Positions 6,058-38,051 of a stretch of 39,267 nucleotides of DNA are shown here, piece after piece (position 1 is the stretch's first letter; each line of letters opens with the position of its first letter). A model generated the notes under the pieces. It was not told where the DNA came from. It ran no database searches and saw only the letters and a list, made by a program, of their open reading frames with translations. The stretch covers positions 1-39,267 of the forward strand of contig CAZOHB010000001.1 of NCBI GenBank assembly GCA_964579345.1, given 5' to 3'. Both the position numbers and the translations under genes were made by a program. This DNA is from an uncultured Parasporobacterium sp. GTDB taxonomy: Bacteria > Bacillota > Clostridia > Lachnospirales > Lachnospiraceae.

Positions 6058-8879
<2,822 letters not shown>

Positions 8880-10247: not shown

Positions 10248-10287
10248 TTAATTAATCCGAATAGTTAATATTTAATCCTAACTGAAA

Positions 10288-10324
10288 AGAGGCTGTCGTG
10301 ATAATTCAAATCACGGCAGCCTCT
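10288..10324. terminator. Hairpin terminator between the convergent amidohydrolase and MATE genes; it also marks the composition boundary
   Basis: A 15-bp stem pairs AGAGGCTGTCGTGAT (10288-10302) with ATCACGGCAGCCTCT (10310-10324), including one G-T pair, around a 7-nt loop. On the minus strand the hairpin is followed by TTTTCAGT. On the plus strand a T-run occurs only about 15 nt later. Confidence 0.6.
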
Positions 10325-10362
10325 GATTATTGGTTCTGTTTTTTCTTAACCATTTCCCCCCC

Positions 10363-20999: not shown

Positions 21000-21076
21000 C
21001 TGCCCGAGTGCGCGTTGGTAGCGCCAACAAGGGCAGCGTCTGTCCGGATATCGCTGGCGGCGGGGGAAATCCCACC
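21000..21076 (-). repeat. Conserved structured 3'-flanking element, copy A, immediately after the LRR-protein stop codon
   Basis: Two blocks are shared with copy B: GTGCGCGTTGGTAGCGCCA (21008-21026, identical in both copies) and GCTGGCGGCGGGGGAAATCCCACC (21053-21076, near-identical). The blocks are separated by exactly 26 nt in both copies. The first block is enclosed by the stem CTGCCC (21000-21005) / GGGCAG (21031-21036). Confidence 0.6.
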
Positions 21077-21078
21077 TT

Positions 21079-24000
21079 TTACTTCACCTTCACCTTAATC
21101 TTGAAGGTGACGCCGTTGATCTTGATCGTCACGGTCGTCTTGCCTTTTTTCGAGCCTTTGATTTTGACCTTGGTCGCGGTCGCCTTTGATGTCACTTTGG
21201 CGATCTTCTTGTTACCGGACTTGTAAACGTTTTTGACATCGGCTGCCTTGCCGGTGATTGCGACGGTCAGTGTTTTTCCCTTCTTTATATTATAAGTCGT
21301 CTTTGCCTTGAATTTTTTGCCGCCGACTTTGATCGTCGGGCTGGTCGTTACCTTGACTTTGCAGGTGAGTGGGGTTCCGCCCGGAAGCGTTGCCGTGATC
21401 GTCACCGTTCCCTTCTTCAGGGCGGTCACTTTTCCGGAAGCGGAAACTTTCGCAACCGCTTTGTTGGAAGACTTCCAGGACACCGCTTCTCCGTTCAGCA
21501 CCTTCAGCGTCAGTGTCTTGCCCGACTTCAAAGATGCGCTTGTCAGACTGAGGGTTGGAGCCGGAATGGTCACGGAATTATGGTCCTCGATCAGGACTTC
21601 ACCAAAGGGGTCCTCAAACCATTCCTTGCAGATCTCACAGACATAATATTCTTTGTGCCCGTCTTCCGTCTCGGTCACCGGTTTCGCTTCCACACAGATC
21701 ATCTCGTGAACATGCGGCGGGGCCGGCGGCTTCTCCGGCTGATATTCCTTAAACTCGATGTTCTCGTCCCCGTCGGCGAACCTCTGCGCTGCGCTTCCCT
21801 TGATTCCCCACATGACATACGGGAAACAGCGGACCGAGTATTCGCCCCATCCCGGCTCATAATCCGGATACCACTTGTCACGGTTAAACGCTTTTTCACC
21901 GATTGCGGTCACGCTCGGCGGGATGATCACGCTCTCCTCGAGCGTATTAACAAAGGCCATGTCCCCGATCTCCTGCACGGTATCTCCCAGGTCGATCTTG
22001 CTGAGCCAGGTACACCAGAAAGCTCCTTCCCCGATGGTCAAAAGACCGGACGGAAGTTTGATCTCTTCCAGTTTCGTGTTCAGGAACGCATAGTCGCCGA
22101 TGGAGAGAAGACTTCCCGGCAGTTCGACACTGACCGGCGGCCTGTCCGCGGGTGCACCGCTTCCATCGGAGAGATTTGCAAAGGCATAAGATCCGATCCC
22201 GGTGATTCCTTCCCGGATATCGATCTGCGTGATCTTTCCTTTAAACTTGCTCCAGGGAGCCGTGTCATCCGGAATCTCCCCTTCGCCATTAATTGTAAGA
22301 AGTCCCTTTTTCTCATTGAACGACCAGTGAATGTCTTCGATATCTCCTTCATTCCCGTCGATCCAGGGGAGCCCGTATTCCATTGCGTATATATACCCGG
22401 CGCTGTTCTTTCGGGCTATGATATAAAATCCCTCAACAGCCTCGTCCACTGTCGTTCCCGGATACCAGAAGCCAAATGCGTACGCTCCAATCTCACGGAC
22501 CGTCTTCGGAATTTCCACGAAAGTCATCTCGGTCGTATGGAAGGCTCTCTCCCCAATCGTTCTTACGCTTTCCGGGATCGTAATTGATTCCAGACAGGTA
22601 TCATAGAATGCGCAGCTTCCAATCGACACAAGATTTTCCGGTAATTCCAGGGTCTCGATTGAGGTTGCTGCAAACGCTCCGTCCGCAATCGTCTCCAACC
22701 GATCGCTTAAAATCAGCGTTCTCAGATTCTCGCAGCCATCAAAAGCTGACACCCCGACAGAAGTAACATCCAGATCAATCGATGCAAGACTCTCACAGCC
22801 TTCGAAGGTACTATCTTCGATAACGTCAACGCCGGACGGGATCCCGATACTTTTCAACGAAGTGCAATAAGCAAACGCTCTTTTGCCGATGGAGGTGATA
22901 TTGTCGTAATGTCCGAAAGGCCAGACAGAATACTCACCCTCGATCTTGACCTCGGTCAAAAAGGACAATCCGTCAAATGCCTCGTCCGGTATCGCTGTGA
23001 TCCTTTCATCAATATACAGTTCTTTGATCTCATTCTCAAAGTCTTTCCAGGGATATTCCTCACACGCAAAGGAGCCGTCTCCGTAAATGGTGAGCGCCAT
23101 TCCGTCTACCAGCCCTACACGGCCTTTAAGGTCCCAGTAATCCGATCCGGCAACACCCTGAATTCCCCTTTCAATCGTAATCTGGCTCGATGATTCAGCA
23201 TACCCCCTGATGGGATCTGTGTATGTCAGATACAGAATCTTTAACGGGTTCTTTTTTCCGGTGGATGCTTCCAGGCTGCTGTCCGGATTGTCCGGAAAAC
23301 TCGACGTAAAGCCGAGCGCCAGCGCCTCAATCGTCGTAAGACTTGCAGGAAGATAGATTTCCTTCAGTTTCGGGCAGGCGGAGAAAGCAAATTGTTCTAT
23401 TTTCAAAAGGCCGTCCGGAAGAATTGCCCACTCAAGATTCGGGCAGTCCATGAAGGCCTTTCTTCCAACAGCCGTAATGCCCGCTTTGATCACGACCGCT
23501 TTGATCTTGTCTTTAAAATAATTCCACGGCACATCGGTGGACTTCTCATAGCTTTCCATTGCTCCGTTTCCGGAGATGACCAATCTTCCCGTTCCGGGGT
23601 TAAAGTCATAACTGCAGCTTCCGGTTTCGCCGTGCAGGGAATGGTATTCGTATGAAATTCCGTTTTCAATTGCGTACGACTCTGCCACGCTTCCCTTTTC
23701 CACATACATCACAAGGCCGGGTACCTGATACAGCTTTCCATAATTATCCCGGCCCCATCCGATCGCCTGTTCTTCGATTGCCGTAACCGAAGCCGGAACC
23801 TCAATCGTTTTCAGATGACTGGTTCCACCGGCAAAAAAGGCACGGTAGCCGATCGTCTCGACCGAGGCTCCGATATGTACCTCTTCCAGATTCAGATACG
23901 TCTCTTCAAATGCCCTTTTCGAGATCGTTGTCATACCGTCTCCAATATAGATGCTTTTGACTTTGCCGGAATACGGATCCCATGGAGCGGTATTTGTCGC

Positions 24001-26049
24001 TCCATACTCCTCCATCGGACCGCTGCCTGCAATATGGAGTTCCTGCGAATTCTGATGATAGCGCCAGGAACAGTTGCCCAGGGTCTCTCCGACACAGATC
24101 TCATACGGAACGGAATTATTCCGTGCATAATTCAGGCCGGCAGAGTTTGCCATCACATAAAGTTTCGCGTCTTCTATCAGTTTTGTGGAATCTCCCGAAG
24201 TGACATAGCAGAGCGCCTGGCTGTCGATGGAAGTCACAGAATCCGGAATAAACAGCTCATTCACTTTGGTATTCAGGAAAGCTTCTCCCCCAATGGTCGT
24301 AAGACCCCGGCCCATCATAACGATTTCCAGAGACCGGCAGCCCTTGAATACCTGATACCCGATTGTTGTCAGCTGATCGGAATAGCTCACTTCCGAAAGC
24401 GCGGTACAGTTTTCGAACATGTTCATCGGCATTGTGGTCACATTCGGACCAAGCTGAACGCGCTCCAGATCTTTGCACTCCGCAAACGCATAGCCTCCGA
24501 TCGAAATCGTCTTCGCTCCTTCTCCACTTCCGAGGCTGAGCGAGGTCATCCCGCTTCCCGAGAACGCTTCGACGCTGATCGTTTGAATGCCCTTTCCAAA
24601 GTTCACATCGGCAAGGGAGGTGCAGCCTTTAAACGCGGCAACACCGATTTCGGTCACCGAATCCGGAAAGGAGATCTCATCTAATGCCGTACAGCCTTCA
24701 AACGCGCGCAGGCCGACCGATTCAACGGCCATTCCGGATTTCAGAGCCTGACTGTTAAACGTTACGCTTCTGAGATGCTTCAGATTCCGAAAGGCTTCCT
24801 CCCCGATGGACTGAAGTTTCCAATCATTAAACTCTACTGTTTCCAGATCTTTGAGCAGAGCGACGCCCTTTGACACGGTGTTAACTCCTTCTCCAAGCCA
24901 TCCCCTGCGTCCTCCGCCGATCACGAGATGGCGAACCTCGTGCTCCGCAACAAAGTCGCTCCAATACGGATCGGATGCAGCCGGGGTGGAATTGGTTTCG
25001 GAATTCCCCGCGCTTTGGATCCAGACGGTCTTCGTCGCCGGGTCGTAGATCCAGTCATTGTTATCGTAATTGGTAAAGAATTGTTTGTTATATAAGACGT
25101 CAAGGCCATTCGCCTTTCCGTATGCATCCGCTGCAGATCCTTCTTCTGTAAGAATGATCGGTGAGACACCCGACTTATTGCTGATCTCTCCGGATGCAGA
25201 AACGTCATATCCAAACGCCTTCTCACTGATGCTTGTAATCGTGGAAGGAATGTAGATACCGGCGTATTCGTACCCGCTTTTATGACCGGCAAAGGCGTAT
25301 TTTCCGATCTGCGCTTTCGTGTTTGCCCCGAAGGTGATCGCTTTTGCGTTGCTTTGAAGGAAGGCTCCTTCTCCGATCTTTTTTACGAAGGAAGTAATCA
25401 GGATCTCTTCGATGGAAGCATTCTTAAATGCGTAGTCTCCGATTTCCGCGCAATTCAGCCGCAGCTGCTTGATCGGACCAAATCCGCCGAATGCTTCTGC
25501 CCCGATTTTCGATGCGTTCAGGATCTGCTCTCTTGAAGTAACCGACAGAATGGAGTCGAAAAAAGCCCTTTCTCCGATCTCTGTCGCATTGCTCAGGTTG
25601 ATGCTCTTCAACTTTGTAAACCGGAACGCTTCTTTGCCGATTCTCATATTACCCATCAGCTGCACCGTCACCGGATCAGAATCCGATGACTCCCGTGCAA
25701 GACCGTAGAAGGCACCGTCTCCGATATTGACGGTATCATAAATATAAATGGATTTGATCTGCCTGCGGAACCAGATCCAGGGGACATCACTGTCATGCGT
25801 CTCCCCGTTCTGATCTGTCCAATACCTGGTTTTATAATGCTGATAATCCGGCATATAGGAAGTGGTGTTCTCTGAAGCTTTTCTGATCGTCAGCTTACCG
25901 GTCGCCTCATCAAACGTCCAGCTGAGGGTTCCTGTCGTCCCGGAGGTCGGATGCATCTCCGCCTTCGCAGGCCACACAACAAAAAGCAGCGCGAGCAAAG
26001 CCGCCGCAAACACGACTATGGAATACCGAAACACCTTCTGCTTAGTCAT
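21079..26049 (-). CDS. Secreted BspA-type leucine-rich-repeat (LRR_5-like) giant surface protein with a C-terminal Cys-motif and two Ig-like (Big_2-type) domains
   Basis: I chose the ATG at 26049 because AAAGGAGG lies upstream. The signal peptide is MTKQKVFRYSIVVFAAALLALLFVVWPAKA. Many IG..AF... LRR units are interspersed with about six W.F(D/N)...G.L.I.G.G...PW modules. The C-terminus has LSLTSASLKSGKTLTLKVLNGEAVSWKSSNKAVAKVSASGKVTALKKGTVTITA (Big_2-like) and ends FKIKVKVK. Confidence 0.85.
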   Translation of the reverse strand: MTKQKVFRYSIVVFAAALLALLFVVWPAKAEMHPTSGTTGTLSWTFDEATGKLTIRKASENTTSYMPDYQHYKTRYWTDQNGETHDSDVPWIWFRRQIKSIYIYDTVNIGDGAFYGLARESSDSDPVTVQLMGNMRIGKEAFRFTKLKSINLSNATEIGERAFFDSILSVTSREQILNASKIGAEAFGGFGPIKQLRLNCAEIGDYAFKNASIEEILITSFVKKIGEGAFLQSNAKAITFGANTKAQIGKYAFAGHKSGYEYAGIYIPSTITSISEKAFGYDVSASGEISNKSGVSPIILTEEGSAADAYGKANGLDVLYNKQFFTNYDNNDWIYDPATKTVWIQSAGNSETNSTPAASDPYWSDFVAEHEVRHLVIGGGRRGWLGEGVNTVSKGVALLKDLETVEFNDWKLQSIGEEAFRNLKHLRSVTFNSQALKSGMAVESVGLRAFEGCTALDEISFPDSVTEIGVAAFKGCTSLADVNFGKGIQTISVEAFSGSGMTSLSLGSGEGAKTISIGGYAFAECKDLERVQLGPNVTTMPMNMFENCTALSEVSYSDQLTTIGYQVFKGCRSLEIVMMGRGLTTIGGEAFLNTKVNELFIPDSVTSIDSQALCYVTSGDSTKLIEDAKLYVMANSAGLNYARNNSVPYEICVGETLGNCSWRYHQNSQELHIAGSGPMEEYGATNTAPWDPYSGKVKSIYIGDGMTTISKRAFEETYLNLEEVHIGASVETIGYRAFFAGGTSHLKTIEVPASVTAIEEQAIGWGRDNYGKLYQVPGLVMYVEKGSVAESYAIENGISYEYHSLHGETGSCSYDFNPGTGRLVISGNGAMESYEKSTDVPWNYFKDKIKAVVIKAGITAVGRKAFMDCPNLEWAILPDGLLKIEQFAFSACPKLKEIYLPASLTTIEALALGFTSSFPDNPDSSLEASTGKKNPLKILYLTYTDPIRGYAESSSQITIERGIQGVAGSDYWDLKGRVGLVDGMALTIYGDGSFACEEYPWKDFENEIKELYIDERITAIPDEAFDGLSFLTEVKIEGEYSVWPFGHYDNITSIGKRAFAYCTSLKSIGIPSGVDVIEDSTFEGCESLASIDLDVTSVGVSAFDGCENLRTLILSDRLETIADGAFAATSIETLELPENLVSIGSCAFYDTCLESITIPESVRTIGERAFHTTEMTFVEIPKTVREIGAYAFGFWYPGTTVDEAVEGFYIIARKNSAGYIYAMEYGLPWIDGNEGDIEDIHWSFNEKKGLLTINGEGEIPDDTAPWSKFKGKITQIDIREGITGIGSYAFANLSDGSGAPADRPPVSVELPGSLLSIGDYAFLNTKLEEIKLPSGLLTIGEGAFWCTWLSKIDLGDTVQEIGDMAFVNTLEESVIIPPSVTAIGEKAFNRDKWYPDYEPGWGEYSVRCFPYVMWGIKGSAAQRFADGDENIEFKEYQPEKPPAPPHVHEMICVEAKPVTETEDGHKEYYVCEICKEWFEDPFGEVLIEDHNSVTIPAPTLSLTSASLKSGKTLTLKVLNGEAVSWKSSNKAVAKVSASGKVTALKKGTVTITATLPGGTPLTCKVKVTTSPTIKVGGKKFKAKTTYNIKKGKTLTVAITGKAADVKNVYKSGNKKIAKVTSKATATKVKIKGSKKGKTTVTIKINGVTFKIKVKVK

Positions 26050-26086
26050 AGCATCCTCCTTTCGAATCGAGGGGAACAAACAAACT

Positions 26087-26269
26087 GCCTTACGTGAAAC
26101 AGCTGACTTTCAAACTGCTCGCAACGGCTCAACAAAGCCTCCGCTAACAGCTTCTAATGCGCTCAGATCGTCTAGCTTCGCGCATAAGAATCTGTAGCGC
26201 GGAGTCTTGATTCGCCTAAGAACGCTCGCCCAGGTTAGGTTTGAAAGTTCAGCTGTTTTCACGTAAGGC
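26087..26269. repeat. 183-nt imperfect palindrome (MITE/ERIC-like, long RNA stem-loop or inverton candidate) in the leader of the LRR gene
   Basis: The arm GCCTTACGTGAAACAGCTGACTTTCAAAC (26087-26115) pairs with 26239-26269 at 29 of 29 bases, with two 1-nt bulges. Inner helices are CTCCGC (26139-26144) with GCGGAG (26199-26204), and TTCTAATGCGC (26152-26162) with GCGCATAAGAA (26180-26190) at 10 of 11 positions. Confidence 0.7.
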
Positions 26270-26288
26270 TCTCTGAATTGTTCAATAA

Positions 26289-26408
26289 GGCGGGATTCCC
26301 CTTCCCTTCCGCCGCCTGCGCCAGCGGTTGATTGGTCCCGTGCGCGTTGGTAGCGCCAGCGGGGCCAATCAGAGCTGGGACATAGCTGGCGGCGGGGGGA
26401 ATCCCACC
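26289..26408 (-). repeat. Conserved structured 3'-flanking element, copy B, embedded in a 120-nt imperfect palindrome directly after the 2,593-aa gene stop codon
   Basis: The outer helices are GGGATTCCCC (26292-26301) with GGGGAATCCC (26396-26405), and CCGCCGCC (26309-26316) with GGCGGCGG (26388-26395). The middle helix is GATTGGTCCC (26330-26339) with GGGGCCAATC (26361-26370). The apex is GCGC-GTTGGTA-GCGC, inside the conserved block at 26340-26358. Confidence 0.65.
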
Positions 26409-26410
26409 TT

Positions 26411-29400
26411 TTATTTAACTTTCACTTTGATCTTGAAGGCAAATCCATTGACCTTGACGGTCACAGTCGCGGAGCCTTTCTTCAGCCCCTTGATCTTGAT
26501 CTTCGTCGCCGTCTTCTTCGAGATCACTTTCGCGATCTTCTTCTTACTCGTCGAGTAAACGTTATTTACACCCGGAGCTTTACCCGTGATCGTAATATTG
26601 AGCGTCTTGCCCTTCTTGACGGTGTACGTCGTCTTCTTCTTGAAGGCCTTCTTATTGATCTTGATCGTCGGATTCGACGAAACCGTGATCTTGCAGGTGA
26701 CCTTCTTTCCGTCGGCAAGCATCGCTGTAATCGTTGTCGAGCCTTTCTTCAGAGCTGTCACTTTTCCGGTCTTGGAAACTGTAGCGATTCCCGTCTTCGA
26801 GGATTTCCAAAGGGCCGGAATTCCGTTTGTTACTTTCAGTGTCAGCGTCTTGCCGGCCTTCAGCGAAGCTTTCTTCTTGCTGATCACAGGATCTCCGAAG
26901 AACGTGATGGTACTGTCGTGGTTCGTGATCTTCTCGGTTCCGAGTCCGTCATAGAACCACTCGCCGCAATCCTCGCAGATGTAGTACGGAATGTTGCCGG
27001 TCTCACCTTTTACAGCGTCCTTTCCAGGAACTGCTGTCAGGTTATGACCCGGTTCCGTAACCAGTTCCTCTTTCGTAATCGGCGTCGTTCCGGTTTCATC
27101 CGCGAAGAGATGACCGCAGGTCACACACTTGTAATGCTCTTTCATACCGTTCGCTCCGCACTTCACTGCAGCGGATTCCGCAACGAAGATCACGTCATGG
27201 CCGGTTGCAATCCAGAGATCGTCACGAACCACGTCCTCACCGTTCATTGCCGCCTCGATCTTCTTATCTAAGGAAGAATAACCGCAGACCTTACAAACAT
27301 CGTATGCCGGGCATCCGTCCGTGTCGCAGGTTGGGTGCACTTCCTTGTGATGTGTATAGGAGTGTCCCTTTGCAGGGATTTCCTTGAAGGTCGTGTAACC
27401 GCACTTCTTACAAGTATCGTACGCCTTATATCCCGACTCGATACAGGTCGCGTCTTTTCCCTCGAAGTGTTCCATATCGTGGCTTGCGGCTGCTGCCTTA
27501 AAGGTGTGCTCATGATCCACCGCTCCGCAGGAACAGCTCATGTAATAGGTCGCTCCCTTGCTGCAGTCGCCGGATACATAACAGTCGACCGACTGGGTCT
27601 GCTGATTGAAGTTATGGTTCGGAACAAGGTGGCTGTACTTCAGTACATCGTTATTATAATTGTAGTCTTCCAGGATGCGGTCTACCTCGTCCTCAGTGAG
27701 CTTAAGTTTCTGCACGGTTTCCGCATCATTCTCTGTTACATAAACGGTATAGTCATGCTTTTTACCGGAATCATCAAAGTCTGCCAAATTCTTCAGCGGC
27801 GTACCGCAGTTATTGAAATCGAGCTCTCCGTTCATATAGTAGACTTTTCCATCGAGATTGTAGAAGCCGTAGCCGCAGTTCTCAAAGGTGATCTTTCCGG
27901 TTCCTTTCAGGTAGATATCCTTATTATCGCCAGCCTGTACGGACTGTACGAACGCATGGTTACCTTTCAGCGTCAGGTTACCGTCGCCCTTAAAGGTAAT
28001 GTTTCCCTTGCCGCGGATAATGTTTCCAAGAAGGAAATTGCTTTCTCCGCCAAGCTTCTCAATATAGTTGTCTCCGATCAGCTCGATCGTCAGATCCTTC
28101 TTGGAGTAGATGACCGACTGTGACCGGACGTGTGCATACAGGAATTTCTCATATTCCACATCGATACCCATATCCGTGATACTGTAATTCTTCAGAGTCA
28201 GGGTCTTTGACGCTGCGTCATAATGGAAGCCGTCCCGCTCGAGATCGCCCGGATCCGATTTCGTAAGCGGAGCTCTTCCGACATAGACACCGTAATCATC
28301 GCCTTCCGGTTTCGTCCGGACCGGCTTCGTGTAGAAGTATTCGCCAATACCCTGCTTGTAATAAAGGACATATTCCGTATCCGGATCCAGACCCGTGAAT
28401 GCGACTTTGGAAGTCGTCCAGTGGTCACCATCCAGGGAGACGCAAAGGTCGCCTGCCTCCGGGAAGTCCGGATAGATCTCTGTCTCCGAGGTCTTGACGA
28501 CAATGTCATTGACATCCACCGTCTTCACGACGATCGAATCGCCGTCCTTCAGATCCGCCGTATATCTTCCGGCCCAGCTCGAAGCTGCTGCCGCAAAGTC
28601 CGGATCGCCGGTCTTCTCCACGCCTGTGAAGAATGTGCCGTCCACTTCCGGAATATCAATGCTTGCGTAATCCTTATACCGGATCGCCTCAATGTCTTTC
28701 TCATAAGCAACGCTGCCGTCCGGCTTCAGCGTCTTCACATGGACATCGATCGGATAGCCGTTGTCCAGCTGCGGCGCTTCGCCCTGCGTTGCGAAAATGG
28801 TTTTCTGCCTGTTTTCATTCACCCGCATATCGACGATGCCGTCGCCATTGCCGTCGACCGTAATATACAGCGGAATCTTCAGCGGTTCGGACGTCGCCGC
28901 GGTCGCAAACAGACTGTTCTCCACCTCGTCATAATCCACATACGCCGTGATCGCTTCCATCTGATCCAGATCCGGCTCGAGACGGATACTGCCGCCTTCC
29001 GTCTCCAGAAGCTCATCCAGATATACCGTCTTTCCTTTGACCAGGTTGAAATCCTTGACCCGGTATTTCGGAAGCGGCGGGATCGCTCTGCCGTCCAGGA
29101 CGGTTAAAGCTCCCGGCACGTTGAAGATACCGTAATCACTGCCGGCACCCCAGGTTCCATGAATCTCTGTCCGCGGATCGATTTCTCCGTTGACATAAAC
29201 TTTCATGTCTGCCTCGTCCGCAAACCCCACTTCGACATTATCGCCGTTCGGGTTCAGGTCGATGATGACTTTCGGTCCATCGATGGTTCCGCGCATAAAG
29301 GACTTCATGGTGTCCGTCGGGTTCTCCGGATCTACATGATAGCCATATGCCTTGAAGGTATACTCTGCGAAGGAGGTCCAGGAGAATCCTTTCTGGAACA

Positions 29401-32400
29401 GGAACATTCTGTCAGCGCGGTCCGCGTTGGTGCCCGTGTAGAACTGCTCCATCCATTCATCCACGCTGTCGCCTTCGGTTACCTCGGTCGGGAAGTCCAT
29501 CTTGACCGTGTCGATCACCGACGGTCCGTCGCCGATCGACCTCGTAAAGGTATAGTAGTATCTGCAGGTGTCGCCGACCTCGTATTCGCCCGTCGCCGGA
29601 TTTTCGACATAGTCCAGACGGCCGTAGCCGAGATCGTTCGTTATGATCCTCAGACCGTCCTCTGCAGTAGTCACTTCCATTGTGAACGGATGGACATTGT
29701 CATAGCACCAGGGCTCCATCTCTTTGAATTTCAGGATCGGGTCGTTCTTCTCGATCACAACGTTGATCGTATATGCTTTATAGAAGTCCGCGACGGCGTT
29801 ATCGTCAAGCCGTTCGCCGGCGCCGTCGGTCCAGTAAACTTCCTTGACGTGATAATCCGCATCGTCCGGAATCTCAACGTCTGTCCGGAAGTGCGCATCG
29901 ATCTCCGGCGGATTGATATTGGTGATCTCAACGTCATCCACATAATCGATGACTTCGACCTGTATCTTCGCTGTCTTTCCGTCCGGTCCGGTATAGGAGA
30001 GCGTCGCAACGCCTGCATTTCCTCCGAACGCAAGGCATCCGTTCGCATCGATATAGGCCACATCGGAATCCGTTGATTTCGCACTGTCAAAGTACAGACC
30101 GAGCGTATAGTTCAGCGGATATATGGTAAAGAGCTTGATATCGCCGCTCTGTACCTTTCCGCTCTTGAGGTCTTCGATGTCGAAGGTATAGCTGTCTTTT
30201 CTGGAAATAACACCTTCTGCCTCGACCTCAAACCGGATATCCGTCGTCGAATAATCAAAGTATCTCTTCGGAACTTCCTCCAGATTGGTCTGGTACTTCA
30301 CGCGTACGGTGTACTCTCCAGGCTTGATTGAAGCGTATCCCTGATCCGGTTTCAGATATTTCTCGTCGTAGAAGTCCTTCGGGAACTGCGCGGTCGGAAT
30401 CGGATCGCCTGCCTTCAGTTCCAGATTTCGGAATTCTTTGTATCTGTAATAGTGTCCTTCATAACCGACACTGTACTGGACATTGGTAATGTACTCGTCT
30501 TCTTCCAGACCGGTCACATTATCCAGGGACAGGGTCGCGTTATTGAAGATCGAGATATAGTTACCGTTCTTTCCGTAATCAATTCCGATCTCTCCTCCGA
30601 GCGGCTGCTCGAACGAGCGCTCCGGAATCTGATAAACATGGGAGTAGAAGGTCTGCATCGCGTCATAGTAGTCGGTCCAGTTGACGTTGACCGCAACTGC
30701 TTCTACCATGATCTTCTTGCCTGCGAGTTCTTTCGGAATATAGCAGGTATCGGTTGAACCGTAATCCTGATTGTTATTCTGATTGGAAAGATCGTAAGCG
30801 GTCGTATCCCGCAGGTCTTTTTCATTGACCCACTGCAGAGAGTATGCGTGGATCAGCCTTGCGATCGCATCATTGTTCTTCGGCCAGTTGTTGGTATCCG
30901 GATCGATATTATTTCCGTTATAGCGGATCTTCGGAAGCCCGTTCTCATATTCGACGAGATTTCCGCTTTCATCCTTTTCCTGCAGGAGTGGATCGTCCGG
31001 TGCCAACGTATTCGCATACAGGAAACCATCCTTGCCCCTCATCCACCAGGACGGTTTGTGCTGATCCTTGTTCCGGTTCAATTCCGCCTGCATCGTTTCC
31101 CGGTTGAGACCTGCTGCCTTTAACGACTGATAATTTTGAGCGATATCCCAGACATTGGTCGTTCCGGCAAGGAGCGTCTCCTTCTTTCCATTATCATCAA
31201 CGATCCACCACTGATAATAGATGTCGTGGATCATGTTGGTCTCCCAGTCGACATTACCGGTCTTGGCATTAACAAAGTTGATCTTTGCTCTCTGTCCTGC
31301 CTTGAACGGAGCGTCCCACTGCAGCGGGGTATAATCATAAGTCTGTTTATTGTATTCTTCCGAATATTTATGCTCTTTCGATCCGTAGCAGAGGAAGAGT
31401 ACGGAACTGGAGGCTTTCGCCGTATTCAGATTTGTCGTATATGCGTATGTATCCGTATTGGCATTATATGCGTTGGTCGAATACTGCTGGTTTCCGTTGT
31501 AATCAAATCCGAGACGCTCTTCCACATCCAGGGTGATCCGGTACATTTCTCCCTGACGGAACTTAAATGTCGGATCCTGCTGCTGGATCTTGGCCTCTAA
31601 GTCAATCAGGCGGATCATGGTCTTAAGCCCCTTACGTGCCTGATCTCCGTAGACCGCGACAGCGATCGGATCGTCATCCCCGATCTTTCCGTCTTTCCGC
31701 AGGTTCAGACGGGTCAGAGGATCCACCTTGTATACTTTGTACTCAAACCATTTCATGTTTGACACATAGTTATAATCCTGGAACAGAACATCGTAATTCT
31801 TATCAAAGACTTTCATAAGATTCTTCATGCTGATGTTCTCGACCGTTCGCGCGTCTACATAAGTCTTCCCTCCGAAGGTGGACGTCATCGTATTCAGTGT
31901 CGAGTTGAAACTGTTCGTGACCTTCGAAGGATCATTCTGCTTGTAATCACCGATTGCGCCGGATACAAGCGTTCCGAAGATCAATAAGTCATTGATCCGC
32001 AGCGGTTTAATCGGATCGCCATATGCGTCCACCGGTTCCTGATAGTACCAGGTCGGTGAAGTCGCTAAAGACTCTCCGTCCGGATCCAGGTTCTTGAACG
32101 TCGGCTTGATCGTGTAGCCGCTCGTGCTCTCGTCGTCGACCGGATAATAGAAGAGACGTTCTGTCGTGCTATAAGCGCCGCGGACGTTTTCCTCATCATC
32201 CTTAAACACCGTTGATATTGCATACTCATCTCCGCCATTTAACTGTGTCTTCAGGCGGAAGCTGTTTGTAGTATTGGTCCTGGCTGTGTTCGGATAGACT
32301 CTCAGTCCCTGTTTGAAACGGAGTTCCATATCGCTGCAGAACAGACGGTAGTGGTAGATGTCTCCGTCTCCACCGCTTTTATCATCCAGAAGGACCAACG

Positions 32401-34192
32401 CTCCGTTTCCGAACGTGTCGATGATCTGGATCCGGCCGTCGCGGATGAAATCCTCACTGAAGGAGGTAATTCCTAAGTTCATGGAGCCGCTGGTTCCGAT
32501 AAAGCTGGTGAAATGCTCCGTCTCGCTCGCGCTCTTGATTCCGACGTACTTCGCGGCATAATGGTTCTTAAATGTTCCGCCGCGGACCTGGACATTCGCC
32601 GTATCGATCGGAGTGGTTCCGTTGGTCTCATACTTCATCTCCTTGACACCCATGGATTCACTCTCTTCGATCGTAACCATTTCCTGATGCCGGACTCCGC
32701 TTTCATCCTGGTTGATCTGCTGTACCCGGTAACTATTACCGGCAGCTTCCACGATATTAAAGATATTTGCTCCATCCCTGCCTTCAAAAGTTCCGCCGAA
32801 AATATAAGCACGACCCCCGGAATACTGACCGGTCGCCGGATCATAGGTAGAAGCCGGGCCTCTTACTACTTCCACGACCGCATTTCTGGTATTATTGGAA
32901 GCACCATAGCCCTGAAAATCTCCACCGTAAGAGACGAAGGTTCCTAAGCTTCCGACCCGGACACAGGTTCCGAAGTTGATCTGCGTAATGCGGGAGTTCT
33001 GATCCACACCGATCATGCCCGCAATACCTTCCACGAAGTTAAACGCCGTATTTACAATGGATTGAATTGAACTCTGATTGACGGTTGCATCCACGATATC
33101 CTTGTTGGCCTTGGCAATCGCTGAATTCTTATCCGTCTTTGCAGAACCGTTGTCGTTCGCCTTCTGCTCTCCGTTGGTACTGTTATTCTTAGCCAGCGCA
33201 GGGATGTTTCCGTCAGCGTCCGGCTTCGGATGATCGATGCCGTCCTGTTTCTCCCCGATCGTCTGCATATCCTTCTTTCCGTCCGGATTCGTGGTCTTAG
33301 GGTCCGCCTTTTCTGCTTTTTTTATTCCCGGAGAAAGAGCTTCCGTATCTTCACTGATCTTCTTAAATTTTTCCACGACATCATCTTTGGCCGCAACAGC
33401 TGCGTCGATACCCGTCGCGTAAGAAGCAACAGATACACCGAGCTCTACGGCCTGACCGATTACGTTCTTTAATTTTGACCAGGAAAAATTGCTCTTAAAA
33501 TGGACCTTGCTGCGTCCGGCCTGGAAGTGTCCGCCGTAGATTACAAGGTTGCCGTCCTCGACATGAAAGAGATCAAAACTGGAAAAGTGCTCGACATCAT
33601 ACTTATAAGGATTCGGGCAGTAGCCATGGATGTAGATCCTTCCCGTTCCTCCGTCCGTATACTTCGCACTGGTGTCAAGAATATAGAACGTTGCTTCGTT
33701 TGTGATCTCGAAGGCTGTCGCCATATGGTGCTCCAGATCGTCCCTCGGACGAGGGGACTGCTCAGTCAAGCCCTTTGACCAGAAACGGGCATTGGAATCG
33801 ACCTGAAATTCAACAGTATGTCCGTTCAGATCAAGGACTTTCGTTTTTTGGATGACTTTCGTTGTCATGCACTCATGTTTCCATCGGTCATGCATATCCT
33901 CGGTCAGACTGATATATGTATCTTCCTCGTCTGTGCTTTCTAATAGTTCGATAAACTCATCATAGTCTTCCGGATGCTTCCATATTACGCTGCCATCCGA
34001 CGGATTCGAATATTCCAGCGTCCTGGCCATGGCCTGGCCTCGGGTATCCGTTCCGCCGCCTAGGACGATTGGAATATTGATCGAATCATCATACTCTCCG
34101 GCTGCCTGGGTAGCTGCCGGAACAGCAGGAAGCATGGTCACCAGCATAAAGACTGCCATCAATATGCTAAAGACTTTCTTCGCGTATTTCAT
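26411..34192 (-). CDS. Giant secreted protein (2,593 aa) of unrecognised family; beta-helix-like segments, Cys-motif repeats and two C-terminal Ig-like domains
   Basis: The RBS AAAGGAGAGGAG precedes the ATG at 34192. The signal peptide is MKYAKKVFSILMAVFMLVTMLPAVPAATQA. Four GGxF motifs occur (YGGHFQAG, YGGDFQGYG, FGGTFEGRDG, RGGTFKNHY). A low-complexity K/D/N-rich linker is present. A beta-helix-like run is NITFKGDGNLTLKGNHAFVQ...KGTGKITFENCG. Five H...C...G...Y.C..CG repeats follow, and the C-terminal 212 aa are homologous to the end of the LRR protein. Confidence 0.85.
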   Translation of the reverse strand: MKYAKKVFSILMAVFMLVTMLPAVPAATQAAGEYDDSINIPIVLGGGTDTRGQAMARTLEYSNPSDGSVIWKHPEDYDEFIELLESTDEEDTYISLTEDMHDRWKHECMTTKVIQKTKVLDLNGHTVEFQVDSNARFWSKGLTEQSPRPRDDLEHHMATAFEITNEATFYILDTSAKYTDGGTGRIYIHGYCPNPYKYDVEHFSSFDLFHVEDGNLVIYGGHFQAGRSKVHFKSNFSWSKLKNVIGQAVELGVSVASYATGIDAAVAAKDDVVEKFKKISEDTEALSPGIKKAEKADPKTTNPDGKKDMQTIGEKQDGIDHPKPDADGNIPALAKNNSTNGEQKANDNGSAKTDKNSAIAKANKDIVDATVNQSSIQSIVNTAFNFVEGIAGMIGVDQNSRITQINFGTCVRVGSLGTFVSYGGDFQGYGASNNTRNAVVEVVRGPASTYDPATGQYSGGRAYIFGGTFEGRDGANIFNIVEAAGNSYRVQQINQDESGVRHQEMVTIEESESMGVKEMKYETNGTTPIDTANVQVRGGTFKNHYAAKYVGIKSASETEHFTSFIGTSGSMNLGITSFSEDFIRDGRIQIIDTFGNGALVLLDDKSGGDGDIYHYRLFCSDMELRFKQGLRVYPNTARTNTTNSFRLKTQLNGGDEYAISTVFKDDEENVRGAYSTTERLFYYPVDDESTSGYTIKPTFKNLDPDGESLATSPTWYYQEPVDAYGDPIKPLRINDLLIFGTLVSGAIGDYKQNDPSKVTNSFNSTLNTMTSTFGGKTYVDARTVENISMKNLMKVFDKNYDVLFQDYNYVSNMKWFEYKVYKVDPLTRLNLRKDGKIGDDDPIAVAVYGDQARKGLKTMIRLIDLEAKIQQQDPTFKFRQGEMYRITLDVEERLGFDYNGNQQYSTNAYNANTDTYAYTTNLNTAKASSSVLFLCYGSKEHKYSEEYNKQTYDYTPLQWDAPFKAGQRAKINFVNAKTGNVDWETNMIHDIYYQWWIVDDNGKKETLLAGTTNVWDIAQNYQSLKAAGLNRETMQAELNRNKDQHKPSWWMRGKDGFLYANTLAPDDPLLQEKDESGNLVEYENGLPKIRYNGNNIDPDTNNWPKNNDAIARLIHAYSLQWVNEKDLRDTTAYDLSNQNNNQDYGSTDTCYIPKELAGKKIMVEAVAVNVNWTDYYDAMQTFYSHVYQIPERSFEQPLGGEIGIDYGKNGNYISIFNNATLSLDNVTGLEEDEYITNVQYSVGYEGHYYRYKEFRNLELKAGDPIPTAQFPKDFYDEKYLKPDQGYASIKPGEYTVRVKYQTNLEEVPKRYFDYSTTDIRFEVEAEGVISRKDSYTFDIEDLKSGKVQSGDIKLFTIYPLNYTLGLYFDSAKSTDSDVAYIDANGCLAFGGNAGVATLSYTGPDGKTAKIQVEVIDYVDDVEITNINPPEIDAHFRTDVEIPDDADYHVKEVYWTDGAGERLDDNAVADFYKAYTINVVIEKNDPILKFKEMEPWCYDNVHPFTMEVTTAEDGLRIITNDLGYGRLDYVENPATGEYEVGDTCRYYYTFTRSIGDGPSVIDTVKMDFPTEVTEGDSVDEWMEQFYTGTNADRADRMFLFQKGFSWTSFAEYTFKAYGYHVDPENPTDTMKSFMRGTIDGPKVIIDLNPNGDNVEVGFADEADMKVYVNGEIDPRTEIHGTWGAGSDYGIFNVPGALTVLDGRAIPPLPKYRVKDFNLVKGKTVYLDELLETEGGSIRLEPDLDQMEAITAYVDYDEVENSLFATAATSEPLKIPLYITVDGNGDGIVDMRVNENRQKTIFATQGEAPQLDNGYPIDVHVKTLKPDGSVAYEKDIEAIRYKDYASIDIPEVDGTFFTGVEKTGDPDFAAAASSWAGRYTADLKDGDSIVVKTVDVNDIVVKTSETEIYPDFPEAGDLCVSLDGDHWTTSKVAFTGLDPDTEYVLYYKQGIGEYFYTKPVRTKPEGDDYGVYVGRAPLTKSDPGDLERDGFHYDAASKTLTLKNYSITDMGIDVEYEKFLYAHVRSQSVIYSKKDLTIELIGDNYIEKLGGESNFLLGNIIRGKGNITFKGDGNLTLKGNHAFVQSVQAGDNKDIYLKGTGKITFENCGYGFYNLDGKVYYMNGELDFNNCGTPLKNLADFDDSGKKHDYTVYVTENDAETVQKLKLTEDEVDRILEDYNYNNDVLKYSHLVPNHNFNQQTQSVDCYVSGDCSKGATYYMSCSCGAVDHEHTFKAAAASHDMEHFEGKDATCIESGYKAYDTCKKCGYTTFKEIPAKGHSYTHHKEVHPTCDTDGCPAYDVCKVCGYSSLDKKIEAAMNGEDVVRDDLWIATGHDVIFVAESAAVKCGANGMKEHYKCVTCGHLFADETGTTPITKEELVTEPGHNLTAVPGKDAVKGETGNIPYYICEDCGEWFYDGLGTEKITNHDSTITFFGDPVISKKKASLKAGKTLTLKVTNGIPALWKSSKTGIATVSKTGKVTALKKGSTTITAMLADGKKVTCKITVSSNPTIKINKKAFKKKTTYTVKKGKTLNITITGKAPGVNNVYSTSKKKIAKVISKKTATKIKIKGLKKGSATVTVKVNGFAFKIKVKVK

Positions 34193-34354: not shown

Positions 34355-34382
34355 AAAAAAAGAGGGGGCCTTTTTCCCCCTC
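34355..34382 (-). terminator. Rho-independent terminator of the sensory operon
   Basis: The minus-strand RNA hairpin GAGGGGG-AAAAAGG-CCCCCTC (7-bp GC stem, 34362-34382) is followed by seven U residues (34355-34361). It lies 38 nt after the response-regulator stop codon. Confidence 0.8.
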
Positions 34383-34419: not shown

Positions 34420-35049
34420 TTACTTAATTCCGGGCACGGTGATCCCGCTTCGCACCGCATTGACCGCCAGTTCCGTGCGGGAAGAAAAGCCGGTTTTCGA
34501 GATCAGATTGCCTACATGATAGCGGACGGTCGTCGTACTTAAGAAAAGCTGCTCCGCAATTTCTTTGTCTGTCAGCCCTTCCGCCAAAAGCCGCAGAACG
34601 TCCAACTCCCGTTCCGTCAGCTCCGATCCTTTTGTCAGCCCTAAGCTGACTTCCGGCGGCTGGTCCGGATACATCTGCTCGCCGGCCATCGTCCGGTCCA
34701 TCACTTCGAGCATCGGAGCTCTCTGCACTTCCTTATACCAGAACGAATCCACGCCGATCTCCCTCGCCCGCTTTAAAAACATGGCGTCCGGCATCGAAGT
34801 GACAATGATGATCCGGATATGCGGATAGGATTTTTTGATCCGCTCGGCGGCTTCCAGTCCGTTATACCCGTCATTCATGACTACATCCATCAGGATCAGG
34901 TCGACCTGCCCTGACGCACAGTAAATATCCGCTACCTTCGCGGTTTCCACCGAGGCCGTTACCGTATAACGCTCGGAAGATGAAATGATCTGCTCAAACA
35001 GCTGCCTTGGAACGATCTGATCATCTACGATCAGTACTCTGTAAGCCAT
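34420..35049 (-). CDS. LuxR/NarL-family response regulator
   Basis: The 209-aa ORF is preceded by the RBS AAAGGAGGAG. It has a receiver domain (VLIVDDQ...DLILMDVVM) and a GerE/LuxR helix-turn-helix (LTERELDVLRLLAEGLTDKEIAEQLFLSTTTVRYHVGNL). Confidence 0.9.
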   Translation of the reverse strand: MAYRVLIVDDQIVPRQLFEQIISSSERYTVTASVETAKVADIYCASGQVDLILMDVVMNDGYNGLEAAERIKKSYPHIRIIIVTSMPDAMFLKRAREIGVDSFWYKEVQRAPMLEVMDRTMAGEQMYPDQPPEVSLGLTKGSELTERELDVLRLLAEGLTDKEIAEQLFLSTTTVRYHVGNLISKTGFSSRTELAVNAVRSGITVPGIK

Positions 35050-36337
35050 CTGTCTCCTCCTTTGGGATAATAATCGTAACCCTCATCTCCGGCTGTGACT
35101 GAATATGCATCTGTCCGCCGGCGTTTTCCACAAGTCCCCGCAGCGAGTGCAGTCCGCCGGTTTCCCGAATCTCCGCCTCCGGCTGCTTTCCATTGTTCGT
35201 AAATACTGCCGTCAGGAATTCTTCCTGTTCCGAAAGGTGAATATATAAGCGGTCTCCCTTTGCATGTCGTATCGTGTTCGTCAGACATTCGTGGATTGCC
35301 GTAGAAAGGACGGCTTTGCGGATATCGCTCTCCGGAAGCGTTCCGTACACTTCGACATCCACGCCCAGTTTCCTTGCGGTCTCAAACAACAGTGTGTAAT
35401 CATCATTCGTTACCGGCTCATATCCGTTCTTGAGAAACGCTACATTCATTTGAAGCTTTTCACGTATGGTCTTCATTTCTTCATCAGAGCCCCCGTTTGA
35501 CAGATATTTCCGGATCAGAAGAAGATTGCTTCCCAGTTCATCATGAATCTTAAGGCGGGCATTTAAAATCTCCTGCGCCGCGGTCACTTCTACGATTTCC
35601 TTATTGATTTTTACAAGGTTCCGGTTGACCTCTGAAAGTTTTTCCATCAGCAGCTGCAGCTGACGGGTCTTCTGCCAGATTTCCGAAATATCTGCAATGA
35701 TCAGCATCGTTGCAGGCCGTTTATCATAAACCGTGTCTTTTTGCTGGACAGACCATGCACTGCTGCCTTCGTCCGCAATCACGATCTGGTCCCCGGTTCC
35801 GATACTTTGGAAACCCGGCGTGATCTGTCCGCTTTTCAGCTGTTCATAAAAAACCTTTCCGTTCTGCAAAACCGCACCGGTCATCCGCATGCAGAATCGG
35901 TCGACTGCTTTATTCTTCATCAGGACCCTGCCATTTATCAGGAAAAAGCAAAGACCGGTTGGCAGAGAGTCGATGGCTTCCTTCACCGAGGACGGCGTGA
36001 TCTGGTTTTTCTCGTATTTTGCAAACGACCGGAACGCAAAGATTTCTCCGAGGCATAGGAGCACAAAGATTCCGCCAAGCACCCAGACCGGTATTCCGGA
36101 AAAGATCCGGAGGGCGGTTTTTGCCGCAGTGGATATGACCTCTCCTGTAATATTGGACGAGACCTGCTGGAACAACAGAAAACAGACCAGCATCAGCAGA
36201 CCCGGCAGCACAAGGGTCCGGTATCTCTTCTGACGGATCTGAAGAACAAATATGATGAAGGCAACAAAAAATTGTATGACAGTCATAAGACCGAAAATCA
36301 GCCAGAACGGAGAAGTGACCGGAAGCGCTGCTATCAT
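35021..36337 (-). CDS. Membrane sensor histidine kinase (HisKA_3-type H box plus HATPase_c)
   Basis: The 438-aa ORF is preceded by the RBS GAGGAGG. It has three N-terminal hydrophobic segments, the H box ARLKIHDELGSNL, the N box HECLTNTIRHA and the G box ETGGLHSLRGLVENAGG. Its start forms an ATGA overlap with the upstream gene, and its 3' end overlaps the regulator gene by 29 nt. Confidence 0.85.
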   Translation of the reverse strand: MIAALPVTSPFWLIFGLMTVIQFFVAFIIFVLQIRQKRYRTLVLPGLLMLVCFLLFQQVSSNITGEVISTAAKTALRIFSGIPVWVLGGIFVLLCLGEIFAFRSFAKYEKNQITPSSVKEAIDSLPTGLCFFLINGRVLMKNKAVDRFCMRMTGAVLQNGKVFYEQLKSGQITPGFQSIGTGDQIVIADEGSSAWSVQQKDTVYDKRPATMLIIADISEIWQKTRQLQLLMEKLSEVNRNLVKINKEIVEVTAAQEILNARLKIHDELGSNLLLIRKYLSNGGSDEEMKTIREKLQMNVAFLKNGYEPVTNDDYTLLFETARKLGVDVEVYGTLPESDIRKAVLSTAIHECLTNTIRHAKGDRLYIHLSEQEEFLTAVFTNNGKQPEAEIRETGGLHSLRGLVENAGGQMHIQSQPEMRVTIIIPKEETDGLQSTDRR

Positions 36338-37941: not shown

Positions 37942-37985
37942 CCGTTTGTCCTCCTTTCTTTCAACGTCGGTTCTCTGGGAAAACC

Positions 37986-38000
37986 GGAGATGTTTCTCCG
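37986..38000 (-). terminator. Weak hairpin between the oxidoreductase gene and the sensory operon (terminator or leader structure)
   Basis: CGGAGA-AACA-TCTCCG (minus strand) is followed by GTTTTCCC. A TATAAT hexamer (38026-38021, minus) lies upstream of the hairpin, so its role is ambiguous. Confidence 0.3.
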
Positions 38001-38051
38001 TCTCCCTTCCCTTTGCTTTTATTATAGAAAAAGAGTCTCTTCTTCTCCCCG

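Follow-up and report, generated by a model that had tools for sequence, protein, structure and literature searches.

A lysine-rich C-terminal module shared by two otherwise unrelated giant secreted proteins of an uncultured Parasporobacterium sp., a candidate cell-envelope anchor

The stretch of DNA analyzed here (the window) comprises 39,267 nucleotides (nt) from an uncultured Parasporobacterium sp. (GenBank assembly GCA_964579345.1, contig CAZOHB010000001.1, positions 1 to 39,267), and carries two co-oriented genes for giant secreted proteins, A and B, on its minus strand, where all window features given below lie unless otherwise noted. Gene A (26411..34192) has an ATG start preceded by the ribosome-binding site AGGAGAGGAG and encodes 2,593 amino acids (aa), laid out as a head, a stalk, and a putative anchor. 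Gene B (21079..26049), which also has a ribosome-binding site, encodes a BspA-type leucine-rich repeat (LRR) protein of 1,656 aa from the ATG at 26049; this codon stands 7 nt past AAAGGAGG, the longest open reading frame (ORF) running from a TTG start (21079..26079; 1,666 aa). Both ORFs are present as a preliminary description of the sequence had placed them. The window derives from a metagenomic contig. The A protein is also found on ENA contigs and the B protein on three public contigs, and the locus is known from two samples.

Both products begin, by inspection, with the Sec-type signal peptides previously proposed for them, each having a basic n-region, a hydrophobic core, and an AxA-type cleavage site. 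The signal peptide of A occupies residues 1-30 (34103..34192; MKYAKKVFSILMAVFMLVTMLPAVPAATQA, followed by AG), with MKYAKK leading into a hydrophobic run and cleavage between TQA and AG, and that of B reads MTKQK..., again followed by a hydrophobic run, with cleavage between AKA and EM. The same type of N-terminus was seen in 55 homologous loci.

Compared by BLASTP, the two proteins give a single significant match, joining residues 2383-2593 of A to 1448-1656 of B with 119 of 211 positions identical (56%, E 1e-61), and all other segments have E > 0.06. The assertion that these giants share only a C-terminal module, about half identical and ending in FKIKVKVK in both, is therefore supported by measurement. 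Pfam applied to the whole of A recognizes Big_2 alone, at residues 2437-2501.

In the module, a single Cys/His knuckle precedes a Big_2 domain, which is followed by another, degenerate domain of Big_2-like type. In A, its first half is the Big_2 domain (PF02368) at residues 2430-2507 (26672..26905), scoring 40.7-50.8 bits against a cut-off of 22.8, with the isolated module tile giving 50.8 bits over two stretches, and its end is the lysine-rich Big_2-like domain at residues 2508-2593 (26414..26671), which finishes in the motif given above. The same three parts make up residues 1441-1656 of B (21082..21729), where Big_2 lies at 1499-1555 (43.3 bits, same cut-off). The terminal domain of A contains 26 Lys and no acidic residue in 86 aa, and the terminal 86 aa of B contain 26 Lys and 1 Asp. 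Averaged over 26 proteins, this domain is 84 aa long with 25 Lys (30%), 0.5 Arg, 0.5 acidic residues, and a net charge of about +25. The charge pattern extends to the complete proteins, the modules carrying +39 and +35 and their passengers -146 (A) and -85 (B).

A profile search found the module in at least 264 clusters at E <= 1e-10, the named organisms being mostly Ruminococcus sp., and the clusters carry no functional name, only "Ig-like domain-containing" or "hypothetical." Word-indexed homologue searches for the module favored short proteins and missed A, B, and P0048-P0057, so that the counts are lower bounds. The passengers are unrelated to one another (LRR_5, cohesin or cohesin-like domains, various small proteins), and the module ends 0-2 residues from the protein C-terminus in all 29 strong homologues. 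It is thus specific and strictly terminal, and more than the generic Big_2 similarity at random positions that had been raised as an objection to it.

No familiar surface attachment signal was recognized in either protein. Pfam gave no match to SLH (PF00395) in A or B and neither Dockerin_1 nor Cohesin; Pfam scans gave no GW, SH3-like, or SLAP match; and a sortase anchor is absent, both proteins ending in ...FKIKVKVK without a hydrophobic segment. Strictly C-terminal, of beta-sandwich fold, and conserved in its last strand, the module might instead act as a sorting or export signal, possibly removed, like the Ig-like C-terminal domain (CTD) of type IX secretion substrates. We find this hardly credible, given the ordinary Sec signal peptides of A and B and the Firmicutes-type affiliation of their relatives, all of which come from Clostridia/Oscillospiraceae metagenome-assembled genomes (MAGs). 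Moreover, no secretion or sorting genes are conserved nearby, the sensor genes upstream of A being the only conserved set, and Pfam at E <= 1 on the module tile returns Big_2 and weak Ig-like or other matches with no secretion-tail family. Colinear relatives of A, as set out below, use SLH or dockerin domains at this position, which are anchors rather than export signals.

Protein A was previously considered an orphan, a label that can now be withdrawn, as its homologues form 57 clusters at 90% identity and 97 representatives at 50%. The 57 clusters, recovered with residues 1-2230 as query, range from 1,288 to 3,148 aa, all but two exceeding 2,000 aa. They derive from Oscillospiraceae, Ruminococcus, and Clostridia MAGs, apart from a single partial protein of R. 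flavefaciens, and their annotations are either hypothetical or taken from an accessory domain. When one genome was scanned for each GTDB species, 70 loci were located, nearly all in rumen or hindgut MAGs and with several copies in some. This is a closed family of about 60-100 giant proteins from rumen and gut MAGs with no characterized member. Four head-family loci were noted in MAG RGIG2756 (L025, L033, L035, and L036), with L025 and L036 having their own upstream sensor sets, and three in MAG RUG11801 (L011, L013, and L043); three to four paralogues per MAG point to lineage-specific expansion.

BLASTP mapping sorts the 57 homologues into three layers. In ten clusters colinearity extends over the whole of A (38-66% identity), in about thirty it stops near residue 2411 (31-35% identity), and about seventeen share residues 1-1190 only. 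Among the homologues colinear as far as about residue 2411, the C-termini vary: 11 carry the lysine-rich module, 8 carry SLH and 10 Dockerin_1 (precomputed Pfam), with a dockerin-like Ca-loop motif in 18 (regular expression), and others end in lysine-rich fn3 or Big_2 domains or in other Ig/PKD-like domains. A search with the regular expression LP.T[GAS] in the last 80 residues of the 57 homologues, the cluster of A itself included, found none. The modular shuffling suggested in the preliminary description is borne out from both sides, with the passenger of A occurring on SLH, dockerin, fn3, and Ig/PKD-like ends and the module occurring on LRR_5, cohesin, and small proteins.

While its passengers diverge, the module itself is conserved across species (50-70% identity), certain G, N, Y, P, and K positions being invariant and the terminal motif fixed. 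Such conservation could be read as the mark of a specific protein-protein docking unit, a dockerin analogue made for a dedicated candidate surface receptor. We think this quite unlikely, as no conserved candidate receptor gene lies beside the module in the loci examined, lysine-rich fn3 domains appear to replace the module in relatives, and a domain with 30% Lys and hardly any Arg or acidic residues is better suited to polyanion binding than to a specific interface.

Single-cohesin proteins are among the carriers of the module. Three loci (L040, L046, and L031) encode, after a giant relative, a protein of 463-473 aa whose start overlaps the stop of the giant gene. The giant protein of L040 combines the head with LRR_5, Cohesin (44.7 bits), and Dockerin_1 (58.2 bits) by Pfam, and its small neighbor has a Cohesin domain (51.9 bits, cut-off 24.1) plus the lysine-rich module. 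The small proteins of L040 and L046 both consist of a signal peptide, a cohesin-type domain, Big_2, and the lysine-rich domain, ending in FKIKIKVK and FKIKVKVK, respectively. By analogy, the lysine-rich module is placed where SLH or LPXTG stands in anchoring scaffoldins. Among the other small module-bearing proteins, the cohesin domain was recognized by eye in P0002 and P0005, which Pfam and phmmer failed to confirm; the matter was settled by a PDB profile search, in which the profile of these proteins matches the cohesin structure 4ums_A (7.7e-5), together with the Pfam result for the L040 neighbor.

The profile of the cohesin-like N-domain (alignment A6) also matches PDB entry 7urp_A (160 aa, E 3.4e-12), better than it matches named cohesins. 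The deposited name of this entry, "Ribonucleases G and E," looks inappropriate, and no paper was found for it. In a further locus (L080, 9390-12083) an 897-aa protein adjoins a small protein with a cohesin-like domain and the lysine-rich module. In the larger protein, a pair of starch-binding repeats of CBM26-like type is combined with a cohesin-like domain, T/P-rich linkers, and a C-terminal lysine-rich fn3 plus Big_2, a layout that resembles an amylosome scaffoldin.

These carriers also bear on whether the lysine-rich module is a substrate-binding unit, by which released proteins or cohesin scaffoldins stick to pectin, mucin, extracellular DNA, or other microbes. Its extreme positive charge without obvious specificity would suit such a role, Ig-like domains often serve as carbohydrate-binding modules, and the L080 neighbor joins CBM26 modules to lysine-rich terminal domains. 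We nevertheless regard substrate binding as unlikely, since the module fills the slot of SLH or dockerin in colinear homologues, sits at the extreme C-terminus opposite the head as Gram-positive anchors do, and, in the single-cohesin fusions beside dockerin-bearing giants, reproduces the layout of anchoring scaffoldins.

Anchoring of this kind has precedents in cellulosomes and amylosomes, where secreted modular proteins or single-cohesin scaffoldins are held on the cell through a module at their C-terminus, as in the SLH scaffoldins of Acetivibrio thermocellus and the sortase-anchored ScaE of Ruminococcus flavefaciens, and relatives of A carry SLH or dockerin in the very slot of the module. 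The present module differs in being a tandem of Big_2 domains with a 30%-lysine terminal domain, A and B are themselves devoid of cohesin and dockerin, and their anchoring is putative. A 2024 survey of cellulosome anchors lists SLH, LPxTG, LysM, a C-terminal transmembrane (TM) helix, and a Cu-amine-oxidase-like type, and nothing like the lysine-rich module (PMC11557425).

A second point of comparison is provided by proteins with the same charge pattern as A and B, a strongly basic C-terminal module behind an acidic passenger. The GW modules of Listeria InlB and the SLAP domains of Lactobacillus S-layer proteins are strongly basic C-terminal modules thought to bind anionic teichoic or lipoteichoic acids and so to keep an acidic passenger on the wall. 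They are unrelated to the present module in fold and sequence, the latter being Big_2-like, and wall binding by it is proposed because of this analogy.

The region of A that lies between the head and the module appears built to project the former. Residues 1191-2195 (27608..30622) are predicted to form a stalk of tandem Ig-like beta-sandwiches based on AlphaFold2 (AF2) and Foldseek. The AF2 model of residues 1191-2390 is all-beta with a predicted local distance difference test score (pLDDT) of 84.6 and includes a solenoid-like segment of short strands at about 1990-2135. Foldseek comparison of the stalk model to PDB gave 104 matches (E <= 1e-3) to Ig-like rods, among them the NUP210 Ig array, the GhpA grappling-hook neck, the S-layer proteins EA1, Sap, and SbsC, cadherins, and an RTX adhesin extender. 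Throughout the stalk, alignment with the homologues is colinear, and G, P, and aromatics make up most of its invariant residues, as would suit a structural element. The near-identical, variable-number repeats of a canonical periscope stalk were not found in A, whose domains are Ig-like but diverged, no dedicated internal-repeat search having been made.

The stalk is followed by five Cys/His knuckle repeats at residues 2196-2429 (26906..27607) with the pattern GH-x10-14-C-x3-G-x4-6-Y-x-C-x2-C. Their family profile matches residues 847-1050 of the Thomasclavelia ramosa IgA protease (9qa6_A, E 6.7e-11), and the alignment keeps the pattern H...ATC...G...Y.C..C, that is, the Cys3His ligand positions. 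In the protease the homologous CTD2 and CTD4 are an uncharacterized spacer fold, predicted to bind Zn, within a "periscope" tail (PMC12415215). By analogy, the Cys3His spacer of A is probably Zn-stabilized. The likeness to periscope proteins and to the protease tail (CTD1-4; PMC12415215) thus comprises a beta-sandwich rod projecting an N-terminal functional part and the homology of the Cys/His repeats of both A and B to CTD2/CTD4. A differs in that its stalk domains are not near-identical, its head is unrelated to the M64 protease, and its putative terminal anchor is of another kind.

The constant part of the family is the head, or N-core, at residues 31-1190 of A (30623..34102), which is common to all 57 homologues. 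Modeled by AF2 from a 31-sequence alignment, this 1,160-aa region reaches moderate confidence (pLDDT 74.8, predicted template modeling score 0.69) and consists of beta-rich, beta-hairpin-rich domains with one long helical hairpin inserted (residues 238-393, 33014..33481; helices 238-276 and 356-393). The tip of the hairpin, residues 277-355, is predicted to be disordered (pLDDT < 50 for 271-364). The low-complexity K/D/N-rich stretch noticed earlier is present and conserved in the family, but what had been taken for a linker is, in the AF2 model, this disordered tip. Within the tip (window 33128-33364) and next to it, E314, K315, N346, K352, and A360 are nearly invariant, and the consensus ...TVGEK...NKAN..G.AK.DKN... 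hints at a linear motif with a function, perhaps in cleavage, cross-linking, or binding.

About 23 polar residues of the head are invariant. Invariant positions include D121, N123, D173, R616, C619, E623, R625, D824, E892, C935, D982, Q994, H1115, and D1148, and H614 is invariant in the 31-sequence alignment. The head would accordingly seem to be the constrained, functional end of A, to judge from its conservation. Pfam tiles of A at E <= 1 and phmmer against PDB found nothing for residues 1 to about 2290, NCBIfam and a PDB profile search had no match within the head, and Foldseek of the head model against PDB and BFVD gave no match at E <= 1e-3 with a single 1,190-residue query. When the first 1,190 residues were compared by phmmer to 1.84 billion representatives, the 97 matches were all family members or fragments, with no distant tail. 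The earlier estimate of about 2,100 unplaceable residues therefore stands for the 1,160 aa of the head but not for the remainder, about 1,000 aa of which are predicted Ig-like stalk with structural matches, followed by the Cys-rich block that matches the T. ramosa IgA protease tail.

Three labels for the head were considered and rejected. The GGxF segments pointed out in the preliminary description are present and conserved across the family, but a beta-helix or pectin-lyase fold for that region finds no Pfam match at E <= 1 and no Foldseek match, and AF2 predicts it to be rich in beta-hairpins. A thioester domain (TED), prompted by the motifs FCxD and YYQWW, has no support from Pfam, PDB, or Foldseek, and a phage or tailspike origin has no match in BFVD.

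Binding or adhesion is the most probable role of the head, and catalysis a less probable one. An enzyme acting on plant, host, or microbial polysaccharide or protein, surface-displayed or held in a cellulosome-like complex, would account for the many invariant D, E, H, R, C, and W/Y residues, for the dockerins of about 18 relatives, a tag of cellulosomal enzymes, and for the occurrence of the family in fibre- and starch-degrading rumen bacteria. It has some weight as a possibility and yet remains on the improbable side, as no catalytic family was recognized by Pfam, NCBIfam, PDB sequence profile, or Foldseek, and the pairing and fusion of the head with LRR_5 binding repeats suit recognition better. 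In Ruminococcus, moreover, dockerins also tag many non-enzymatic proteins.

That pairing concerns protein B, which is recognizable as an LRR_5/BspA-type protein, as originally described, and matches Pfam LRR_5 (PF13306) in ten stretches with 496.8 bits against a cut-off of 27.7 (E 2e-151). The arrays cover residues from about 31 to 1440 (21730..25959). The HupY/LrrG adhesin equivalog (NCBIfam NF047961) scores 199.5 bits against a cut-off of 1,250, a likeness at the level of the repeats only. B resembles the BspA-type LRR proteins (Tannerella forsythia BspA; HupY/LrrG) in its LRR_5 repeats, signal peptide, and C-terminal Ig-like region; unlike them, it ends in the lysine-rich module instead of a sortase or type IX signal and belongs to a type that is genetically paired with, or in the case of LRR_5 fused to, the head family. 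In all three close relatives with enough downstream sequence (L005, L006, and L012), an LRR_5 gene carrying the lysine-rich module comes after the A-like gene, L006 having four such giant genes in a row, and head-LRR_5 fusions occur in other genomes. Based on the gene pairing and these fusions, the head appears to work together with LRR_5 proteins, and so A with B.

Upstream of A lies the gene set that had been described as a dedicated sensory operon. A LuxR/NarL-type response regulator (34420..35049) is directly upstream, with receiver (Response_reg, 65.4 bits) and GerE (66.9 bits) domains and matches to NarL-family NCBIfam models. It is preceded by a membrane histidine kinase (35021..36337) with 3-4 TM helices by hydropathy, short loops, an HDELGSNL H-box, HATPase_c at 26.9 bits, and weak matches to UhpB and LiaS models, and by a 7-TM sensor-like protein (36334..37941; public gene call, 535 aa) with seven TM segments by hydropathy and a HisKA_7TM score of 27.2 bits, just below the cut-off of 28.6. 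A 614-aa ORF for the last of these (36334-38178, minus strand) overlaps the upstream Pyr_redox_2 gene (38052-39221, minus strand), and its first 79 residues are Arg/Lys-rich and non-membrane; the 535-aa call, starting at 37941, is more plausible. LiaFSR envelope sensors join an accessory membrane protein to an intramembrane-sensing kinase of HisKA_3 type and a NarL/LuxR regulator. The set upstream of A is similar to them in having three genes, a kinase with short extracellular loops and an HDxxxxxL H-box, and a LuxR-type regulator. It differs in its accessory protein, which is HisKA_7TM-like and not LiaF, and the LiaS model gives 20 bits against a cut-off of 450, so that the kinase falls outside that family.

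In 16 of the 26 loci whose upstream sequence is long enough to be informative, homologues of all three sensor genes lie upstream of the giant gene at a distance of no more than 6 kb (co-oriented in 11, divergent in 5), even where the giant protein is only 33-36% identical to A, which supports the word "dedicated." The strong terminator reported between this operon and A was also located, at 34362..34382, as GAGGGGGAAAAAGGCCCCCTC followed by T7, with a 7-bp stem containing six GC pairs. Regulation of A by the sensor set is plausible from this synteny.

We propose that A and B are Sec-exported surface-display proteins and that their shared lysine-rich module is a non-covalent cell-envelope anchor, a reading that we consider rather probable because of the equivalence of its slot to that of SLH and dockerin, its cohesin partner, its occurrence on other small carriers, and its absence from the surveyed anchor types. 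Of the three functions originally offered for the module, anchoring is the best supported, by inference, and export and partner binding are less so. Each protein would then present an acidic functional N-terminal part, a novel head on an Ig-like stalk of about 1,000 aa in A and LRR_5 arrays in B, followed in both by the Cys3His spacer, probably Zn-stabilized, and the module. The module would be functionally equal to SLH domains or to a dockerin-cohesin link, most likely binding polyanionic wall polymers by charge and so holding the protein on the cell, with the stalk projecting the head tens of nanometres outward in the manner of a "periscope." Transcription of A would probably be under the adjacent three-gene membrane sensor system of 7-TM protein, intramembrane-type histidine kinase, and LuxR-type regulator. 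Of this picture, the domain anatomy, the family, the exchange of modules, the gene order, and the charge are observed, and the anchoring, its wall-polymer target, the adhesion, and the regulation are inferred.

Several observations weigh against parts of this proposal. The anchor argument draws on position and charge, and a lysine-rich domain could equally bind an external polyanion, just as the module-bearing cohesin proteins could be substrate-bound and not cell-bound. An adhesive role for the head is the default for such an architecture, an enzyme or Ca-binding sites would also explain its invariant D, E, H, and C residues, and its want of fold matches is suggestive, not conclusive, given the moderate confidence of the model and the single 1,190-residue query. 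As to regulation, the sensor set is absent from 10 of the 26 informative loci, including that of the close relative L005, a scan of the A leader found no sigma-70-like promoter, and k-mer enrichment upstream of family members gave nothing convincing as a shared regulator site, the enriched upstream 8-mers possibly reflecting relatedness or the 3' end of the regulator gene.

The two genes are separated by an intergenic region (26087..26410) with two long hairpins, formed by inverted repeats I1 and I2 with arms at 26287-26301/26396-26410 and 26087-26099/26257-26269. The minimum free energy of the RNA of this region of about 330 nt is -180 kcal/mol (z = -11.6 against shuffles), and the equivalent gap in L005 and L006 is about 100 nt. 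The hairpins may represent palindromic elements that were inserted, or structures that process or stabilize the mRNA and set the A:B ratio. An Rfam scan of the window found no family at the gathering threshold.

The DNA immediately following the stops of A (26336-26410) and B (21004-21078) is partly near-identical, with blocks matching at 25 of 26 nt and 19 of 19 nt. Over 75 nt these 3' flanks are 75% identical, compared with 66% within the coding module, and the near-identical blocks occur only in contigs of the same species. This suggests that a duplication or gene conversion took in the 3' flank, or that a repeated element is present there.

Elsewhere in the window, the GC content is about 40% in the first 10 kb and about 52% in the rest, with a jump near 10,000-10,400. 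By coordinate arithmetic, the independent scaffold_1023 ends at about window position 10,340, at this boundary, and a second contig, k141_473966, seems to cross it. The boundary may mark the edge of a genomic island, a junction that varies between strains, or an assembly join. The low-GC part contains a Cpn60_TCP1-family chaperonin gene (7266-8879, plus strand; 232 bits) in an unusual setting of MFS transporters, two amidohydrolase-like genes, a URO-D-like gene, and a LysR regulator.

The overall design of these proteins is a familiar one, comprising a signal peptide, a head, a stalk, and a C-terminal anchor that is swapped among SLH, dockerin, and others. What is new is the lysine-rich tandem Big_2 anchor candidate, the closed head family without a sequence or fold relative, and the conserved partnership with a three-gene sensor; a literature search for the head family or the lysine-rich module found nothing specific. 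We may speculate that the head family and the sensor set form one unit, in which a surface "antenna" of unseen fold engages a particle, host, or microbial ligand and feeds back via intramembrane-sensing kinases to its own expression and perhaps that of the cellulosome or amylosome, with the lysine-rich tandem Big_2 module as a new charge-based anchor class, although we regard the whole of this scheme as very doubtful.

Ruminococcus and other Oscillospiraceae of the rumen and gut are key degraders of fibre and starch, and the organization of their cell surface is only partly understood. If the module is indeed a wall anchor, it would represent a new type beside SLH, sortase, LysM, and TM-helix anchoring, and many unannotated "Ig-like domain-containing" and single-cohesin proteins would become readable as surface-attached. 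The module could also serve as a surface-display tag in anaerobes that are hard to engineer. The head family, with several paralogues per genome and its own sensor system, is a concrete target for structure determination and ligand screening.

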